Source: a virus
Taxonomy: Duplodnaviria > Heunggongvirae > Uroviricota > Caudoviricetes
Length of the DNA stretch: 42,122 nt
Direction: 5' to 3' (one strand)
IMG/VR virus record: IMGVR_UViG_2541047913_000004
The position numbers and the translations under genes are program-made. Under the pieces are notes generated by a model. The model saw only the letters and a list, made by a program, of their open reading frames with translations. It ran no database searches and was not told the origin of the DNA. Below, in pieces: positions 1 through 42,122 of this stretch; the first letter of the stretch is position 1, and the number at the start of each line of letters is the position of its first letter.

Positions 1-1164
1 TTACGCCTTCTTTATATCCTCCATAATTCCACAGTGGGACATATTTGGGACATTATCACCAAAAATGTCGTCTATTTTCCTTGCATGCTCTGTCAAATGA
101 TTAGGCGCAAGGTGAGCATACCTACGAACCATTTCTATGGACTCCCATCCGCCCATTTCCTGAAGCACAGATAATGGGACGCCTGACTGGATCAGCCAGC
201 TTGCCCAGGTGTGTCTGAGGTCATGGAAACGGAAATCTTCAATTCCTGCACGACGACAAGCTGATAGCCATGATGTCTTGCTGTCGATGCGCATCTTCCT
301 GACCGCAGGCGTTGATGTTCCATCTGCTCGCTTAGCCGCCTTGGTATGTACAAACACCCATTTGTGATGCTTGCCTATTTGATCACGCAACACTTTACAG
401 GCGGTATCGTTCAGCGCCACACCAATGGCGCGGTTTGATTTGCTCTCTTCTGGATTCACCCAGGCAACTCGTCGCTGCATGTCGATTTGTTGCCATTCCA
501 GATTTATGATGTTCGACTTTCTCAGACCAGTTGCCAGCGCAAACTTGACGACAGATTTCAGTGGTTCGGGGCACTCATCAATAAGGCGTTTTGCTTCCTC
601 CTTTTCCAGCCATCTGACTCGCTTGTTTCTGACCGCTGGTATCTTGATGACAGGCGCTTTTTCCAGCCACTTCCAGTCGCGTTCTGCAGCACGGAGAATG
701 GCCTTTATCATGGCAAGATGCTTTGCCTTTGTCTGAGTTGATACTGGCTTTGGTTCATAAACAGGCGGTTCTTTACCTTTCCTGATGGCGGCCTGAACTT
801 TCTGTTTCCATATTTCTTTCGTCTTTCTGTTATGCATTCTGCTTACAGCAGAGTAAATCTTTGCCTCCGAGATATCTTTAAGCCTTATACCCTCAAAATG
901 TTCAAGCCAAAACTCAATCCGGCTTTTATCTGAATCGAGAGATTTTTTATCAGCTTTTTCCTCAAGCCATCTTAGGCAGGCCTCTTCAAAAGTGACATCA
1001 GGTAAATCCCCTAGCTTTTCTACTCGCCAGAGTTCTGCTTTTCGCTTGTCGTGCAACTCCTGAGCTTGCCGCTTGTCCTTTGTGCCAAGAGATTCCTTAA
1101 TTCGTTTCCCGCCCGGGAGCGAATACGAGGCATACCATATTTCATTTCTGCGGAAGAGTGACAT
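1..1164 (-). CDS. int: Tyrosine-type site-specific recombinase (prophage integrase), 387 aa
   Basis: Full ORF with ATG at 1162-1164 preceded by a GAGGA Shine-Dalgarno; N-terminal arm-binding-like region; C-terminal catalytic region ends ...HDLRHTWAS...VLQEMGGW...VRRYAHL, the tyrosine-recombinase R/H-x-x-R/Y signature. Sits at the prophage end as expected for int. Confidence 0.93.
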
Positions 1165-2712: not shown

Positions 2713-3537
2713 TCAGGCGGTGAAAGTACCAATAAAGGTTTCTACTTTGCTGTCTTTGAATTTCTCAACAAGCAGATCACGAAATTCGTTAGCCATTTCT
2801 TCCTGCACCGCTTCCAGCTGAATAATGCGCAGAACCAGTACAGGACGATCGCCAGTGATAATGCTGAGGCGTAATTTAAACGGACGTTCTTTCAGACCTT
2901 CAAACGGAACGCATTTAAATTCAAATGCCACTGGCATAATGTCTTTGGTCTTCGCTTCGACAGACTCCATCAGGGAGCGTTTGCCGCTGAAGTCATTATC
3001 TTCAAAATCAGCGGTCTGGTTCGCTTCAATTGTGATTTTACGGATCGCCGCAGCCGCTTTGGTTGCCTGAATGGCGTCACCATTAGCATCAAAGCCCACA
3101 AGGTAGTCGGCCCAGTCTTCAATCCATTCTGCCAGTGACTTCTGGGAGTTACGCTCGCCGTTAACAGACAACAGGGCAGAGAACGGTGCTGTCTTTTTCA
3201 GTTTGAGAGTGGCGGTGTTATCTGCGTGACCTGGTTCATCAATAGTACCCAGGTTAAGCACACTGACGGCTCGCATATTATCGGCATCGATAAAGCAGCG
3301 GGTGCCTTCATCTGCAAGATCTTTAGAATAACGGGTAAAGTCATCGATGCTGGCAGTGGAAAGCGCACCACGGAAACGGAAGCGATTTAAATTAAATTTT
3401 TCCAGATCATGAATGCGGAAATTCTCAGGCAATGCCACAGCATCGGCACCAATCTTACTGATAATTTCATTAACACCCTGAGCAGAAATAAGGGCATGGA
3501 TTTGATTAATTGCGGTTGCGTCTAAGTTCTGAGACAT
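2713..3537 (-). CDS. yfdQ: DUF2303-family prophage protein, YfdQ-like, 274 aa
   Basis: Long clean ORF with ATG at 3535-3537; length and position match CPS-53 yfdQ. Confidence 0.75.
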
Positions 3538-3602
3538 AATAAGTCCTCACTATATAAAGATATTCAGTGATGAGATAAATAATCAGTTTATTAAGAACGA
3601 TA

Positions 3603-3965
3603 TTAATGACCTGCTGCGCGTAGTTTTCCGTCAGGTTCACCGGCAAGAGTCAGTATTTGTCCATAGTCTTCCTGCAGAATAGTCAGGCGACCACCGCGAT
3701 TGACATACATCGGCGTTTCGGTGGTGTCTTCTTCGGAAATTTTCCCGCGGTTAGTTGGGCGAACATATGAGAGTTTGTGTTTGATTTTCACACGGTTCTC
3801 ATCAAACGGTTCGATTTCCAGATTGAGTGAGACCTTCCCTTTGGTTTTCGTGTTCATCACACCGGAAGCGACTTCACTGAGAACTGCGCCGATTTTGGTT
3901 TCAAATACGCCGCCGTCCAGCTCCCCGATAAATGCCTGCACATCAGTACTGCGTTCGCTAGCCAT
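3603..3965 (-). CDS. yfdP: Early-left operon protein, YfdP-like, 120 aa
   Basis: Start placed at the internal Met (MASERSTDVQAFIGELDGG...) because a GAGGAG Shine-Dalgarno lies 7 nt upstream of this ATG (3963-3965). The ORF-track extension to 4283 translates the GC-rich structured region into Arg/Cys-rich low-complexity sequence. Confidence 0.65.
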   Translation of the reverse strand: MASERSTDVQAFIGELDGGVFETKIGAVLSEVASGVMNTKTKGKVSLNLEIEPFDENRVKIKHKLSYVRPTNRGKISEEDTTETPMYVNRGGRLTILQEDYGQILTLAGEPDGKLRAAGH

Positions 3966-3989
3966 TTTGCTGCTCCTCATCATATCGAC

Positions 3990-4330
3990 CCTGCAAGGTC
4001 GGTTGGTTTCTCCACAAAACAGAGAAGAACACCTGCGGTGGCAGCCGCCCGGATGGATTGGGTTATGAGCCCGTCGTCCGGTGATGCTCTTCTCTGTTTT
4101 GTAAAAAGGACGGTACCAGCCGGAAGCAAGGGTACAAGCTGGTACCGCCAGGACTACACACAGCATAAAGTTGTGGTGCCGGGTGCCTCCCGGTGCCTGG
4201 CGAAGGTTGCACACCAGGCGGGTGGGTATCCACAGAAGGTCGACTGTCAGCCTCAACCTTAACCCGCGTGCGCTGAGCCGCATTCACCACAACGCTAAGG
4301 ATTCTCTCTGGTTGAAAATACTTAGCTGTT
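3990..4330. ncRNA. Candidate structured non-coding element (unclassified); strand undetermined
   Basis: GC-rich block with no credible ORF in any frame, packed with perfect inverted repeats: a 15-bp stem 4014-4028/4088-4102 enclosing nested hairpins (4035-4048 and 4049-4053/4077-4081); a 10-bp stem 4111-4120/4138-4147 with a 17-nt loop; hairpins at 4179-4193 and 4195-4219. Flanked by AT-rich sequence. Confidence 0.3.
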
Positions 4331-4434
4331 ATGTGCCTGCTTTTAGCCACATCAGGCGAGGTGGACCTGGTTATTCCCCAACAACAAGGATTCGGTTAAT
4401 CTGGATATCCCCAACAACAATAAGAGTATTCAAT

Positions 4435-4950
4435 GTGATCGCTGAATTAACGGCAGCAATGACGGCTATTCGTGAAACAGCCCAGATTGCAAAACTAATG
4501 AACGAGGCAAAAACTCAATCTGAAGTAAATGCGGCTATTGGTGAGCTAAACTCAAAGCTTGCGTCTATTCAGCGCGAATGCGTGTCTCTCGTTGAACTGG
4601 TGGGCTCTTATCAAGAAATAAATGCTTCTCTCAAAGCTAAAATTGCAGAATTCGAAAACTTTGAGGCTCAGACGGAAGGCTATATCCTTAACCAACTTGA
4701 GTCGGGTACTTTTGTATACTCGAAGGAGGTAATCGTGAACGGTGGCAGCATAACCATGCATCTTTGCCCAAAATGTTTTGGACAAAAGATAGTATCGATA
4801 CTTCAACCATTCCCGGTTAGCGAAGATGAGCTTTTTCATAAAAGCAGGTGCCTCCACTGTGAAAATAAGTTTCTGATGAATAAAAATCCGGATTACGTAT
4901 CGCCTCCATCCATTGAGGAGTTGTCCAGAAAACTTAACGGCAATCTGTAG
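4435..4950 (+). CDS. Hypothetical coiled-coil protein with C-terminal zinc ribbon (CPKC...24 aa...CLHC); candidate lysogenic-conversion or exclusion factor
   Basis: GTG at 4435 with an AAGAG Shine-Dalgarno-like motif about 8 nt upstream (alternative ATG at 4459). N-terminal half is heptad-like and Glu/Lys/Ala-rich; C-terminal half has two CxxC pairs. The residue composition looks like a real protein, whereas the antisense ORF is Phe/Leu/Tyr-rich. Followed by its own intrinsic terminator. Confidence 0.6.
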   Translation: MIAELTAAMTAIRETAQIAKLMNEAKTQSEVNAAIGELNSKLASIQRECVSLVELVGSYQEINASLKAKIAEFENFEAQTEGYILNQLESGTFVYSKEVIVNGGSITMHLCPKCFGQKIVSILQPFPVSEDELFHKSRCLHCENKFLMNKNPDYVSPPSIEELSRKLNGNL

Positions 4951-4989
4951 ATTACTACTGTTGTGGATATCCAGATTGTTAAAGAGCTA

Positions 4990-5012
4990 AGCGTCCTGTA
5001 GGGCGCTTTTTT
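4990..5012 (+). terminator. Rho-independent terminator of the zinc-ribbon gene
   Basis: Hairpin agcgtcc-tgta-gggcgct followed by TTTTTT. The stem has a U-G wobble on the plus-strand RNA that would be a C-A mismatch on the minus strand, so it favours the plus orientation. Confidence 0.6.
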
Positions 5013-5097
5013 GTTGCTAACGAATCATCCTGGACTTCATATGCCCCAGGCGGATACTTCGTGGGCGTCCTGCCTGTTTGTTGTTTCTCTTGGGTAC

Positions 5098-5125
5098 ATT
5101 ATGTATCTCAAAGGTACATTGTCAA
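5098..5125 (-). promoter_or_regulatory. pL-like early-left promoter with overlapping operator-like palindromes (OL)
   Basis: Minus strand has a perfect -35 TTGACA (complement of 5120-5125), a 16-nt spacer and -10 CATAAT (complement of 5098-5103). The palindrome TACAT-T-ATGTA (5095-5105) overlaps the -10, and a GGTACA motif is shared with the cI-cro intergenic operators. Confidence 0.55.
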
Positions 5126-5164: not shown

Positions 5165-5839
5165 TTAAGCTTTGATTTTGTATCTTCTTGGTTTTCCTGA
5201 GAAAATCACAGTTCCAATTATAGAGCAATTACCGTTGATCTTAATGTAAGGCTCAGGCCAGTTTGGGTTTAACGCTTTGAGATAACGCTGTGTCCCATCT
5301 TCTATCAACCTTTTGAAGGTGGTTTCACCTGTATCGTGCATCAATGCAATAACGTCGTCACCGTGGCAGGCAGGTACTTCAGGATCGACAAAAATCATGT
5401 CTCCCGGGCGGTACTCATCAATCATTGAATCACCTATCACCCGCAAGATATAAGTCATTTCCCCACAGGGTACAGGGCAGGGATACGTTTCTGCTGTGCT
5501 CAAATCAACCTCAGAATATCCAACTTCTTTCCATGCTCCGGCCTGTACCCATGATATGACAGGGACTAATGTGATTTGTTTATTAGTGATTGAAACATCA
5601 GGTTTTTTTGTGATGTTCGTTGTCTGGTGTTCTTGATCGAGCCATCCGACAGGCAGGTCGAAACATTTTTCTATGTGTCGTGCCATGCTGTCACCGATAT
5701 TTTTAGTAGCACCATCTCCCATAAACCTGCTGGTCTGGGTTGGCTCGCGATCAATCATAGTGGCAAAGGAAGAATTCCCGCCAACACCATCTCTCAGTTT
5801 TCTGGCGTTAGACCGCCGGATGTCATGGATTGTTTTCAT
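5165..5839 (-). CDS. cI: CI-type prophage repressor with LexA-like S24 autopeptidase domain, 224 aa
   Basis: C-terminal domain carries the Ser nucleophile in ...VIGDSM... and a downstream Lys (...TFKRL...), as in LexA/CI self-cleaving repressors. Divergently arranged with a Cro-like gene across an operator-containing intergenic region. Confidence 0.85.
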   Translation of the reverse strand: MKTIHDIRRSNARKLRDGVGGNSSFATMIDREPTQTSRFMGDGATKNIGDSMARHIEKCFDLPVGWLDQEHQTTNITKKPDVSITNKQITLVPVISWVQAGAWKEVGYSEVDLSTAETYPCPVPCGEMTYILRVIGDSMIDEYRPGDMIFVDPEVPACHGDDVIALMHDTGETTFKRLIEDGTQRYLKALNPNWPEPYIKINGNCSIIGTVIFSGKPRRYKIKA

Positions 5840-5929
5840 AACGAAATTAAAACCCTCGTACCGTTAAGGTACAAGTATCTTGAAGGTTCATTTCAATCAT
5901 GTAATATGTACATCGGAGGTACATATTGT
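5840..5929. promoter_or_regulatory. OR-like region: pR (rightward), probable pRM (leftward), operator palindromes
   Basis: Plus strand has -35 TTGAAG (5880-5885), a 16-nt spacer and -10 TAATAT (5902-5907) ahead of a GGAGG Shine-Dalgarno and the cro ATG. Palindromes GTACC-N5-GGTAC (5858-5872), ATGTA-ATATG-TACAT (5899-5913) and TGTAC-N7-GTACA (5907-5923) overlap the promoter. Confidence 0.6.
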
Positions 5930-6130
5930 ATGAAAGCGTATTGGGACTCTTTAACCAAAGAACAGCAGGGCGAGTTGGCCGGAAAAGTTGGCTCAACACC
6001 TGGCTACTTACGGCTGGTTTTCAATGGCTATAAAAAAGCCAGTTTTGTGCTGGCTAAAAAACTTGAGCAATGCACGTCAGGTGCAATTACGAAATCTGAC
6101 TTAAGACCGGATATCTATCCGAAAGATTAG
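5930..6130 (+). CDS. cro: Cro/YdaS-like HTH regulator, 66 aa
   Basis: Small ORF divergent from cI with a GGAGG Shine-Dalgarno 9 nt upstream of the ATG; helix-turn-helix-like segment ...GSTPGYLRLVFNGYKKASF... Confidence 0.75.
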   Translation: MKAYWDSLTKEQQGELAGKVGSTPGYLRLVFNGYKKASFVLAKKLEQCTSGAITKSDLRPDIYPKD

Positions 6131-6369
6131 CAGAACACTTTCAATTTTTAACCACAGAACGATGAGGCTAATCGTGGGTAAGCATCACTGGAAAATAGAA
6201 AAACAGCCTGAGTGGTACGTGAAAGCTGTCAGAAAAACTATCGCGGCGTTGCCGGGTGGTTACGCTGAAGCGGCTGATTGGCTCGATGTAACAGAAAACG
6301 CTTTATTCAACCGCCTGAACCGCCCCGGGAATCCTGGAGACTAAACTTCCTGAGAAAGAGGTAAACAGG

Positions 6370-6696
6370 ATGACTAAAAATACTCGTTTTTCCCCCGAAG
6401 TCCGTCAACGGGCAGTCCGTATGGTTCTGGAAAGTCAGAGCGAATATGACTCACAATGGGCGACAATTTGTTCCATTGCTCCAAAGATTGGCTGTACGCC
6501 GGAGACTCTGCGTGTCTGGGTTCGCCAGCATGAGCGGGATACCGGGGGCGGTGATGGAGGGCTCACCACCGCTGAACGTCAGCGTCTGAAAGAGCTGGAA
6601 CGTGAAAATCGTGAACTGCGCCGCAGTAACGATATCCTTCGCCAGGCTTCCGCTTATTTTGCGAAGGCGGAGTTCGACCGCCTCTGGAAAAAATGA
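6370..6696 (+). CDS. IS629 OrfA (transposase N-terminal HTH protein), 108 aa
   Basis: HTH and leucine-zipper-like sequence typical of IS3-family OrfA; ends in an A6 run (6688-6693) that overlaps the orfB start. Confidence 0.9.
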
Positions 6697-7583
6697 TGCC
6701 ACTGCTGGATAAGCTGCGTGAGCAGTACGGGGTCGGACCGCTATGCAGCGAACTGCATATTGCCCCGTCAACGTATTACCACTGTCAGCAACAGCGACAT
6801 CATCCTGATAAACGCAGTGCCCGTGCGCAGCGCGATGACTGGCTGAAGAAAGAGATACAGCGCGTATACGATGAAAATCACAAGGTATACGGTGTGCGTA
6901 AAGTCTGGCGTCAGTTGTTACGGGAAGGTATCAGAGTGGCCAGATGCACTGTGGCACGTCTCATGGCGGTTATGGGACTTGCCGGTGTTCTCCGGGGTAA
7001 AAAGGTCCGTACGACCATCAGCCGGAAAGCCGTTGCCGCAGGCGACCGCGTAAACCGTCAGTTCGTGGCAGAACGACCTGACCAGCTGTGGGTGGCTGAT
7101 TTTACTTACGTCAGCACATGGCGGGGCTTCGTCTATGTGGCGTTCATCATTGATGTGTTTGCCGGATACATCGTGGGGTGGCGGGTCTCATCGTCCATGG
7201 AAACGACATTCGTGCTGGATGCACTGGAGCAGGCGTTATGGGCCCGTCGACCGTCCGGCACGGTCCATCACAGTGATAAAGGTTCTCAGTATGTATCGCT
7301 GGCCTACACACAGCGGCTTAAGGAAGCCGGATTACTGGCATCAACAGGAAGTACAGGCGACTCGTATGACAACGCGATGGCGGAGAGCATCAATGGTCTT
7401 TACAAAGCGGAGGTAATACACCGTAAGAGCTGGAAAAACCGTGCAGAAGTGGAACTGGCCACACTCACGTGGGTGGACTGGTATAACAATCGACGATTGC
7501 TGGAAAGGCTGGGCCATACTCCTCCGGCAGAAGCAGAAAAAGCTTATTATGCTTCCATCGGAAACGATGATCTGGCAGCCTGA
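6693..7583 (+). CDS. IS629 OrfB (DDE transposase catalytic domain), 296 aa
   Basis: DDE/RNase H-fold integrase-like region (...WVADFTYV... ...HSDKGSQY... ...DNAMAES...). Lies in the -1 frame relative to orfA, so an OrfAB fusion by -1 frameshifting at the A6 run is expected. Confidence 0.9.
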
Positions 7584-8034
7584 GTTCACAGATAAAACAC
7601 TCTCCAGGAAACCCGGGGCGGTTCAGCCTTCGTGCAGATGGCGATCAGATTTTCCCGCTGGGATGGGCAATGGTTTTACAGCGTGCTGGTGGCACTCACT
7701 TCATTGCTGATGCTGTGGCGCAGTCTGCAAATGGCGTCTTTGTGTCTCTTCCTGACGTCGAGGATGTGGACAACGCCGATATTAACCAGCGCCTGCTGGA
7801 AGTCATTGAACAGATCGGCAGTTATTCAAAACAGATTCGTTCAGCAATTGAAGACGGTGTAGTGGAACCGCATGAGAAGACAGCAATTAACGACGAGCTG
7901 TACCTCTCAATTTCGAAGCTGCAGGAGCATGCAGCACTGGTCTACAAAATTTTTTGCATTTCAGAAAGTAATGACGCCCGCGAGTGTGCAGCTCCGGGCG
8001 CCGTGGCGTGTCGTGACTGTGGAGAAACTAACGC

Positions 8035-13593: not shown

Positions 13594-14691
13594 TTAGAAC
13601 TGGTAAACCAGACCTACAGCAACGATGTCATCAGTGCTTACACCGAGTGCTTTAGTGAAGTCATTTTTGTCAAGCAGGTTGATTTTGTAATCAACGAAAG
13701 TAGACATATTTTTGTTGAAGTAATAGGTTGCACCTACATCAACATATTTGACTAAGTCCTGATCGCCCCATACTCCAAGATCCTTACCTTTAGATTGCAG
13801 GTAAGCAACGGACGGACGCAGACCGAAATCGAACTGATATTGTGCAACAGCTTCGAAGTTTTGAGCTTTATTAGCAACGAAGTGATCAGCAAATACAGTC
13901 ATATTCTGGGTTTCAGAATAGGTAGTGGCCAGGTAAATGTTGTTAGCGTCATATTTCAGACCTGCGGCCCAAACTTCTGCATTTTTACCGGAAGCAAATA
14001 CTTCAGGAAGAACTTTCCCTGCATTAACTTGAGTGTCGGTACGATCAGATTTCGCATAAGTTGCACCGATACCGAATCCTTCGTATTCATAGGTAGCAGA
14101 GAAACCGAAGCCATCACCGTTACCTTCGGTGTAGTTATCGAAATCGCTACGATCGTTTTTGCCTTGGTACTGAGCAGCAAAGTTCAGACCATCAACCAGA
14201 CCAAAGAAGTCGTTGTTACGATAGGTTGCAACACCAGTGGTGCGACCAGTCATGAACACATCTGTTTGGGTCCAGGTATCGCCACCGAATTCTGGCAGAA
14301 CGTCAGTCCACGCACCGATGTCGTATGCTACACCGTAGTTACGGCCGTAATCGATTGAGCCGTAGTCACCGAATTTCAGGCCTGCAAATGCAAGACGGGT
14401 TTTGTCTTTGGAGGAACCTTGAGATTCAGCGCGGTTGCCTTTGAATTCATATTCCCACTGACCGAAACCAGTCAGCTGATCGTTGATTTGGGTTTCGCCT
14501 TTGAAGCCCAGACGAACATAAGTAGTATCACCATCATCTGCATCGTTAGAGGAAAAGTAGTGCTTGGCATTAACTTTCCCGTACAGATCCAGCTTGTTAC
14601 TGTCTTTATTATAAATTTCAGCTGCCTGAGCAGACATCGCCATCAGTACTGATGCAGCTACAGCAGAAATTGCCACTGTTAATTTTTTCAT
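13594..14691 (-). CDS. nmpC: Outer-membrane porin NmpC/Lc (OmpC/OmpF family), 365 aa
   Basis: Signal peptide ([23 protein letters not shown]), porin beta-barrel pattern and C-terminal ...VGLVYQF; intact, with no IS5 interruption. Confidence 0.9.
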
Positions 14692-41538: not shown

Positions 41539-42122
41539 TGGCATTCAGAATGAGTGAACAACCACGGACCATAAAAATTTATAATCTGCTGGCCGGAACT
41601 AATGAATTTATTGGTGAAGGTGACGCATATATTCCGCCTCATACAGGTCTGCCAGCAAACAGTACCGATATTGCACCGCCAGATATTCCGGCTGGCTTTG
41701 TGGCTGTTTTCAACAGTGATGAGGCATCGTGGCATCTCGTTGAAGACCATCGGGGTAAAACCGTCTATGACGTGGCTTCCGGCGACGCGTTATTTATTTC
41801 TGAACTCGGCTCATTACCGGAAAATGTCACCTGGTTATCCCCGGAAGGGGAGTTTCAGAAGTGGAACGGCACAACCTGGGTGAAAGATGCAGAAGCAGAA
41901 AAACTGTTCCGGATCCGGGAGGCGGAAGAAACAAAAAACAGCCTGATGCAGGTAGCCAGTGAGCATATTGCGCCACTTCAGGATGCTGCAGATCTGGAAA
42001 TCGCAACGGAGGGAGAAACCTCGTTGCTGGAAGCCTGGAAAAAGTATCGGGTGTTGCTGAACCGTGTTGATACATCAACTGCACCTGATATTGAGTGGCC
42101 TACGAACCCTGTCAGGGAGTAA
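41538..42122 (+). CDS. tfa: Tail fibre assembly protein Tfa, 194 aa
   Basis: 194 aa, coupled by TAATG to stf; lambda Tfa-like; its stop codon is the last 3 nt of the window. Confidence 0.9.

Follow-up and report, generated by a model that had tools for sequence, protein, structure and literature searches.

What does an open reading frame near the repressor gene of a lambdoid prophage encode, and does its product serve the resident phage, defend the lysogen or do neither? The frame in question occupies positions 4435-4950 of a stretch of Caudoviricetes DNA of 42,122 nucleotides (IMG/VR record IMGVR_UViG_2541047913_000004), the whole of which is referred to here as the window. An initial annotation, made from the letters of the DNA alone, regarded it as an orphan coiled-coil and zinc-ribbon gene at the map position of lambda rexAB and sieB and, together with an adjacent structured element, as a candidate for an undescribed module expressed in lysogens. 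The analysis presented here indicates that the gene adds a divergent new member to the Rip1 family and is not an undescribed module, and that it has no connection with the structured RNA next to it.

Genomic setting and reading frame

The window is a lambdoid prophage whose early-left arm is of the SfV/CPS-53 type, with lambda-type Nu1, gpA and portal genes farther to the right. The features that surround the gene are the following:

1-1164, minus strand: int
Early-left arm: yfdT-, eaE- and yfdR-like genes
2713-3537, minus strand: yfdQ
3603-3965, minus strand: yfdP
4100-4323, minus strand: STnc100/PasD-like prophage sRNA (Rfam RF02076)
4327-4434, plus strand: conserved leader of 108 nt, delimited by the start of homology and by conservation across backbones
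4435-4950, plus strand: predicted Rip1-family gene, GTG start, 171 aa, from ORF calling and homologue alignment
4989-5014, plus strand: intrinsic terminator, an 8-bp GC-rich stem (4989-5008) and then a T-run
5080-5125, minus strand: pL-like promoter (TTGACA-16-CATAAT, 5125 to 5098) and operator-like repeats
5165-5839, minus strand: cI (S24-peptidase)
About 5930-6130, plus strand: cro

The frame runs on the plus strand from a GTG at 4435 to a stop at 4950, is preceded by the Shine-Dalgarno sequence AAGAG at 4422-4426, and specifies a protein of 171 aa and 19 kDa. Start codon, Shine-Dalgarno sequence and N-terminal residues alike are kept in homologues from four other prophage backbones. Against these homologues the frame has a dN/dS of 0.14-0.31 and is therefore under purifying selection; the ORF is a real gene. 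The estimate of about 170 aa in the initial annotation holds in view of this conserved start and selection, and the terminator that it had placed at 4990-5012 is present as the stem and T-run listed above.

Membership of the Rip1 family

Rip1 is encoded by prophages and brings about abortive infection (Patel, McCarthy, Taylor et al., Nature 651:1060, 2026). As summarised in a review (PMC13434031) and a meeting report (PMC12908700), Rip1 is non-toxic when alone, superinfected Rip1 lysogens become rounded, and escape mutations map to the portal in Pseudomonas phages and to the small terminase in E. coli phages, while cryo-EM places 12 Rip1 monomers around an 11-mer small-terminase ring. The same two sources state that Rip1 complexes permeabilise liposomes and cells, leading to premature lysis of infected cells, and that homologues are widespread in proteobacterial prophages (PMC13434031, PMC12908700). 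The review describes oligomeric small-terminase or portal rings as the trigger for membrane pores, with the C-terminal half of Rip1 touching the ring and the N-terminal amphipathic helices making the pore (PMC13434031).

Several comparisons connect the window protein with Rip1. When all PDB chains were searched with phmmer, the single significant match was chain L of entry 9oox (9oox_L, 'ring interacting pore 1 (Rip1)'; E 2.6e-7), in which chain residues 25-159 align with query residues 11-150 and both CxxC pairs are aligned. The protein in this entry is gp37 of Escherichia phage HK446, to which the window protein is 27% identical by BLASTP (E 4e-11). A profile made from 31 sequences, including HK620 HkaP and Pseudomonas DMS3 gp25, matches 9oox with an E value of 5.9e-27 over profile positions 4-151 of 165 and chain residues 14-160 of 164. 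Furthermore, the window protein belongs to phrog_1244 (E 2.8e-59), a family listed as of unknown function, to which HK446 Rip1, DMS3 gp25 and HK620 HkaP also belong (E 1e-51 to 1e-61 for the four proteins). A tblastn search of phage genomes brought out relatives of about 28% identity in HK620 (hkaP) and HK629/HK630, as well as in the Pseudomonas Mu-like phages DMS3, JBD30, D3112 and MP38.

Four features of sequence, fold and layout expected of a Rip1 gene were found at this locus. Homology to the characterised Rip1 is full-length, and an amphipathic helical N-terminus is followed by a C-terminal globular domain. The CxxC...CxxC pattern is present, its standing as a feature of Rip1 being itself taken from the alignment. 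The layout is that of a single-gene prophage moron, with antisense placement in 12 of 12 contexts, a terminator of its own and a conserved leader. On the strength of this homology, the window gene is very probably a divergent member of the Rip1 family.

The family is also far larger than the word orphan would suggest. A word-index search yielded 123 homologues, nearly all from Enterobacterales and all named 'hypothetical', and a profile search of 1.84 billion cluster representatives (50%-identity clusters) matched 2,765 of them at E <= 1e-3, with 1,041 reaching E <= 1e-10; the 150 best of the 2,765 are mostly proteins of about 145-180 aa matched near full length. Of 5,426 complete E. coli genomes, 686 carry the 654-bp module over at least 80% of its length, and the copy in O157:H7 has about 94% identity to it. 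A gene with thousands of cluster matches, a PHROG and this many carriers is therefore not an orphan. Neither does 'undescribed' apply, since the Rip1 family was described in 2026 (Nature 651:1060, summarised in PMC13434031) and has a solved structure, 9oox. The profile search and the structure prediction that had been proposed as checks both point to Rip1 (9oox), the former with the E value of 5.9e-27 given above and the latter with a pLDDT of 90.6.

Predicted fold and invariant cysteines

The AF2 model of the 171-aa protein, made with an MSA of 40 homologues, reaches that pLDDT of 90.6 and comprises helices at residues 2-24 and 28-79, followed by a beta-rich domain at 84-150. Amphipathic stretches are predicted at residues 7-24 and 37-54 (muH 0.41-0.44), and the two-part design agrees with that published for Rip1 (PMC13434031). 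The cysteines C111, C114, C139 and C142 (CPKC...CLHC, with a spacing of CxxC-24-CxxC) are invariant in all 31 aligned sequences, and G91, Y95, L123 and P125 are likewise invariant across the family. The helical N-terminus and the zinc ribbon proposed earlier are both confirmed by these results. Foldseek returned 9oox_L and 9oox_M as the sole significant PDB matches to the model (TM normalised to the target, 0.53 and 0.76, respectively); the title of the entry is 'HK446 Rip1 in complex with T6 small terminase'.

Family and defence-system databases had little to say about the protein. Searches of Pfam gave sub-threshold coiled-coil-type matches only, which were judged to be noise, no usable NCBIfam match was found, a fold search of BFVD added nothing, and PADLOC assigned zero families to the window protein; PADLOC v2.0.0 (2023) also misses HK446 Rip1 itself. 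The DksA/TraR family (zf-dskA_traR) is without a Pfam match even at E <= 10, the spacing in the window protein being CxxC-24-CxxC, and profiles for RexAB and SieB are unmatched as well (zero families in PADLOC, nothing relevant in Pfam). The earlier statement that the protein is unrelated to Rex, SieB and DksA/TraR is supported by these absent matches and by the different cysteine spacing.

Map position and antisense placement

Two 20-nt operator-like repeats (5080-5119) overlap the strong pL-like promoter. Two further copies of the repeat lie between cI and cro (5872-5924), which makes these sequences plausible oL and oR operators. As pL reads from 5125 to 5098, the ORF lies downstream of it, antisense within the early-left transcription unit; it is convergent with cI, and the leftward pL transcript would cross the cassette antisense. 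Of the map position first assigned to the gene, the proximity to cI is correct. The equation with lambda rexAB is not, because rexAB lies between cI and oL and the window gene is downstream of pL on the antisense strand, in a slot that matches those of HK446 rip1 (gp37) and HK620 hkaP instead.

Antisense placement inside a phage operon is common to all of the 12 gene-called contexts, which comprise the window, its near-identical relative PhiR49_1, HK620, DMS3, HK446, the Rac-like prophage of O157:H7, and prophages of Salmonella, E. coli, Citrobacter, Edwardsiella, Arsenophonus and Klebsiella. The DMS3 copy sits between the terminase subunits, the HK446 copy between N and cIII, and the Salmonella copy directly after cro. 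An ORF-based strand census of 80 IMG/VR loci was crude and is reliable for the downstream neighbour only, as shadow ORFs confounded the upstream calls. Such antisense placement is the classic moron layout, which would allow expression from a repressed prophage.

Some loci of the family have arrangements of their own. In Arsenophonus nasoniae (L021, 3501-3989), a homologue of the enterobacterial clade is antisense between a lysis cassette and Nu1/gpA-type terminase genes, a position that echoes the terminase-adjacent site in Pseudomonas phages. The Rip1-like gene of an Edwardsiella locus (L019, 3501-5779) is followed on the same strand by ORFs of 228 aa and 175 aa, and that of a Klebsiella michiganensis locus (L023, 3501-4464) by a same-strand gene for a DUF2767 protein; these small downstream genes may be multi-gene antisense islands or encode partner proteins.

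Leader, terminator and exchangeable cargo

Homology to prophages of other backbones in O157, Salmonella and E. coli (L011) begins at 4327/4328 and reaches the terminator. In divergent copies, the leader retains 87-92% nucleotide identity compared with 63-64% for the ORF, and the sequence farther upstream is unalignable. The leader was found in 79 of the 80 IMG/VR loci with the gene, the one exception being cut by a contig end. Judged by this pattern of conservation, the 108-nt leader belongs with the gene. It is CA-rich and contains two CCCCAACAACAA repeats (4376-4387 and 4409-4420) with ARN-type triplets, the second of which abuts the Shine-Dalgarno sequence. Hfq reportedly binds A-R-N repeats that accompany Shine-Dalgarno sequences (PMC4104026), which offers a possible lead here.

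A standard sigma-70 scan did not find a promoter on the plus strand. A weight-matrix scan gave a weak candidate, with a -35 of TTCCCC at 4374-4379, a spacer of 17 nt and a -10 of TAATCT at 4397-4402; this predicted element is the only positionally conserved promoter candidate in the leader, and its -10 reads TATAAT in the E. coli prophage L011. The possibility that the leader is a structured RNA was rejected (fold z +1.2), as was the possibility that its CA-rich repeats are a target of GcvB R1, the duplex energy of -16.9 kcal/mol being equalled or bettered by 1,888 of 2,000 random windows.

The leader is more widely distributed than the gene, occurring at a coverage of at least 80% in 1,276 of the 5,426 E. 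coli genomes, about twice the gene-carrying count. The E. coli D2 prophage is alignable with the window up to 4418 and again from 4956, and between the shared leader and terminator an ORF of the ECs1072 family takes the exact place of the Rip1-like ORF. In other E. coli prophages the same leader, or part of it, precedes a 167-aa ORF, ORFs of 159-164 aa whose hydrophobic core has two segments, and a 170-aa ORF that has a signal peptide and weakly matches LprI. Loci that combine the leader with an unrelated single ORF are L006, L015, L016, L017 and L018, and L006 also has the same terminator. The ORFs of 167, 159-164 and 170 aa had no Pfam match above threshold, and none of the alternative cargo ORFs, that of the ECs1072 family included, had a PADLOC match.

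Since the same leader and terminator surround unrelated ORFs, the slot is a single-gene moron hotspot, the conserved flanks of which could act as recombination handles, and the alternative cargo ORFs are candidates for further prophage defences or morons. A more speculative proposal, which we regard as doubtful in its entirety, is that of a portable cassette, in which the 108-nt leader and the terminator would provide shared signals for expression and, at the same time, sites of recombination at which single-gene cargo is exchanged beside the immunity region of enterobacterial lambdoid prophages. The (ARN)n repeats at the Shine-Dalgarno sequence would then impose shared post-transcriptional control, for instance via Hfq, and this clade of Rip1 may sense a different ring trigger than HK446 Rip1.

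The adjacent structured RNA

The structured element that had been grouped with the gene matches the full length of the Rfam model RF02076 (STnc100) at 4100-4323, its 42.4 bits falling just short of the gathering score of 47 (E 1.6e-7). It folds with a z of -2.5, and a strong terminator hairpin closes it. Both STnc100 and PasD have been described as sRNAs of prophages (bioRxiv 10.64898/2026.05.13.724894). The sRNA sits between pL and yfdP with its 5' end abutting the leader of the Rip1-like cassette, and it occurs as well in SfV and the E. coli D2 prophage, neither of which has the Rip1-like gene. The window follows the SfV backbone up to 4364 (3401-4364, 97.7%) and again from 5019 (98.1%); between these blocks SfV has orf33 on the other strand and the Rip1-like gene is absent. 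Because 3401-4364 is common to SfV and the sRNA is on the minus strand, the element was assigned to the phage backbone and rejected as a part of the module, so that the joint module first envisaged falls away. A promoter for the sRNA at 4100-4323 was not found, and it may therefore be processed from the pL transcript.

Probable function and alternative explanations

Because of the full-length homology, the fold, the invariant cysteines, the antisense placement and the selection on the frame, it is likely that the window protein works as a ring-triggered, pore-forming abortive-infection defence. The initial annotation had guessed at superinfection exclusion or abortive infection, and the full-length homology to Rip1 favours that guess. 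That the window protein is expressed in the lysogen, responds to such a trigger, forms pores and protects against phage is carried over from Rip1 by homology, and at 27-28% identity neither the specificity of the trigger nor even the retention of pore activity can be read from the sequence.

If the window protein acts as Rip1 does, transcription of the gene in the lysogen would start in its own leader and proceed rightward, opposite to the repressed pL operon, to end at the gene's own terminator before oL/pL and cI. The protein would be inert alone. In the late phase of a superinfecting phage, ring-shaped oligomers of the small terminase or the portal would appear, the C-terminal zinc-ribbon/beta domain would bind around the ring, and the ring would template about 12 copies of the protein. 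The N-terminal amphipathic helices could then assemble into an inner-membrane pore, with lysis or depolarisation of the cell before progeny are complete. On induction, antisense transcription from pL could lower expression of the Rip1-like gene during the resident lytic cycle, a speculative damping that may spare the resident phage.

Other functions have to be considered. The Rip1 fold might have been turned to a different job, for example that of a nucleic-acid-binding zinc-ribbon regulator or an entry-stage superinfection-exclusion factor, as identity to HK446 Rip1 is only 27%, zinc ribbons often bind nucleic acids, and hkaP of HK620 is annotated as 'putative superinfection exclusion'. That annotation is itself unsupported, however, and the homology includes the N-terminal helical half; moreover, the family is uniform, with single-domain members of about 145-180 aa, and the gene has the same antisense moron placement as the proven Rip1 genes, so that a change of job is unlikely. 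More improbable still is a role in the cycle of the resident phage, such as the coupling of its own terminase or portal ring assembly to lysis timing. The window does encode lambda-type Nu1, gpA and portal, and the gene lies beside lysis and terminase genes in Arsenophonus and Pseudomonas phages, but it is always antisense to the lytic operons, would be opposed here by pL transcription on induction, and behaves as exchangeable moron cargo that the close relatives SfV and the E. coli D2 prophage do without.

A silent or decaying passenger ORF without current function is very hard to credit and the least probable explanation of all, even though a strong promoter was not detected and the early-right operon of the prophage has suffered an IS insertion. 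The dN/dS of 0.14-0.31, the four cysteines and other residues invariant across genera, an intact copy in 686 complete E. coli genomes, and conservation of leader, Shine-Dalgarno sequence and terminator alike all argue for a maintained gene. Ring-triggered abortive infection of the Rip1 type is the preferred reading of this locus.

Relation to known systems

In comparison with Rip1 itself (HK446 gp37 and the Pseudomonas aeruginosa Rip1), the window protein shares the PHROG, the predicted fold and homology over the full length. It is similar in size to HK446 Rip1 (171 aa versus 164 aa), both have N-terminal helices and a C-terminal domain with four cysteines, and both genes are single-gene morons that run antisense to the phage operon around them, close to the immunity region or to terminase genes. 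The differences are that identity to HK446 Rip1 is only 27-28% and that the window gene falls in a separate clade of Enterobacterales with a conserved 108-nt leader of its own, not present in front of HK446 rip1 or HK620 hkaP. As far as could be found, there is no experimental work on this clade, and no text relevant to hkaP or HK446 was found. HK620 HkaP and DMS3 gp25/D3112 orf25 are about 28% identical to the window protein, fall in the same PHROG, conserve the four cysteines and are encoded by antisense genes, and their annotation goes no further than hypothetical or 'putative superinfection exclusion'.

Lambda RexAB and P22 SieB are lysogen-expressed abortive-infection or exclusion functions encoded beside the immunity region, and RexB is a membrane channel that collapses the membrane potential. 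A relationship to them in sequence or fold is absent by Pfam, PADLOC, phmmer against the PDB and Foldseek. RexAB is a two-protein system co-transcribed with cI, whereas the window gene encodes a single protein, is convergent with cI and lies downstream of pL.

The tail assembly blocker Tab of Pseudomonas phage JBD26 is an opposite-strand prophage moron with its own promoter that acts late, on virion assembly, by blocking tail assembly, and it has a partner, anti-Tab (PMC10884400). [quoted passage not shown] It was rejected, as Tab is an unrelated protein of 83 aa that blocks tail assembly, in contrast to the pores of the Rip1 type, and a partner gene is not evident at the window locus.

Implications for annotation

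The principle of this defence is not new, the Rip1 family and its mechanism having been published in 2026. The present assignment gives a likely function, that of a Rip1-type abortive-infection pore responding to packaging or portal rings of phages, to a 'hypothetical' protein found in about one-eighth of complete E. coli genomes, O157:H7 included. This could be relevant wherever phage susceptibility has to be predicted, as in phage therapy, and to the annotation of defence systems, as PADLOC and NCBIfam are without a model for the family. In addition, the shared leader could help to find further single-gene prophage defences.

Other features of the window

Relative to PhiR49_1, the window has an IS3-family insertion of about 1.3 kb at 6317-7625, within a ymfL-like gene of the early-right operon. 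The element contains orfA (6370-6696) and orfB (6693-7583) as well as a match to the Rfam ALIL frameshift pseudoknot at 6651-6767. The insertion may impair lytic growth of the window prophage while leaving the Rip1-like gene intact. Farther right, a 365-aa Gram-negative porin (Pfam Porin_1, E 1.8e-156) is encoded on the minus strand at 13594-14691 among plus-strand ORFs, and this gene is likely a lysogenic-conversion moron. Near the right end of the window, in or beside the ORFs of the tail-fibre region, a full-length match to Rfam IS009 (RF02111, 225.7 bits) lies on the plus strand at 41881-42079.
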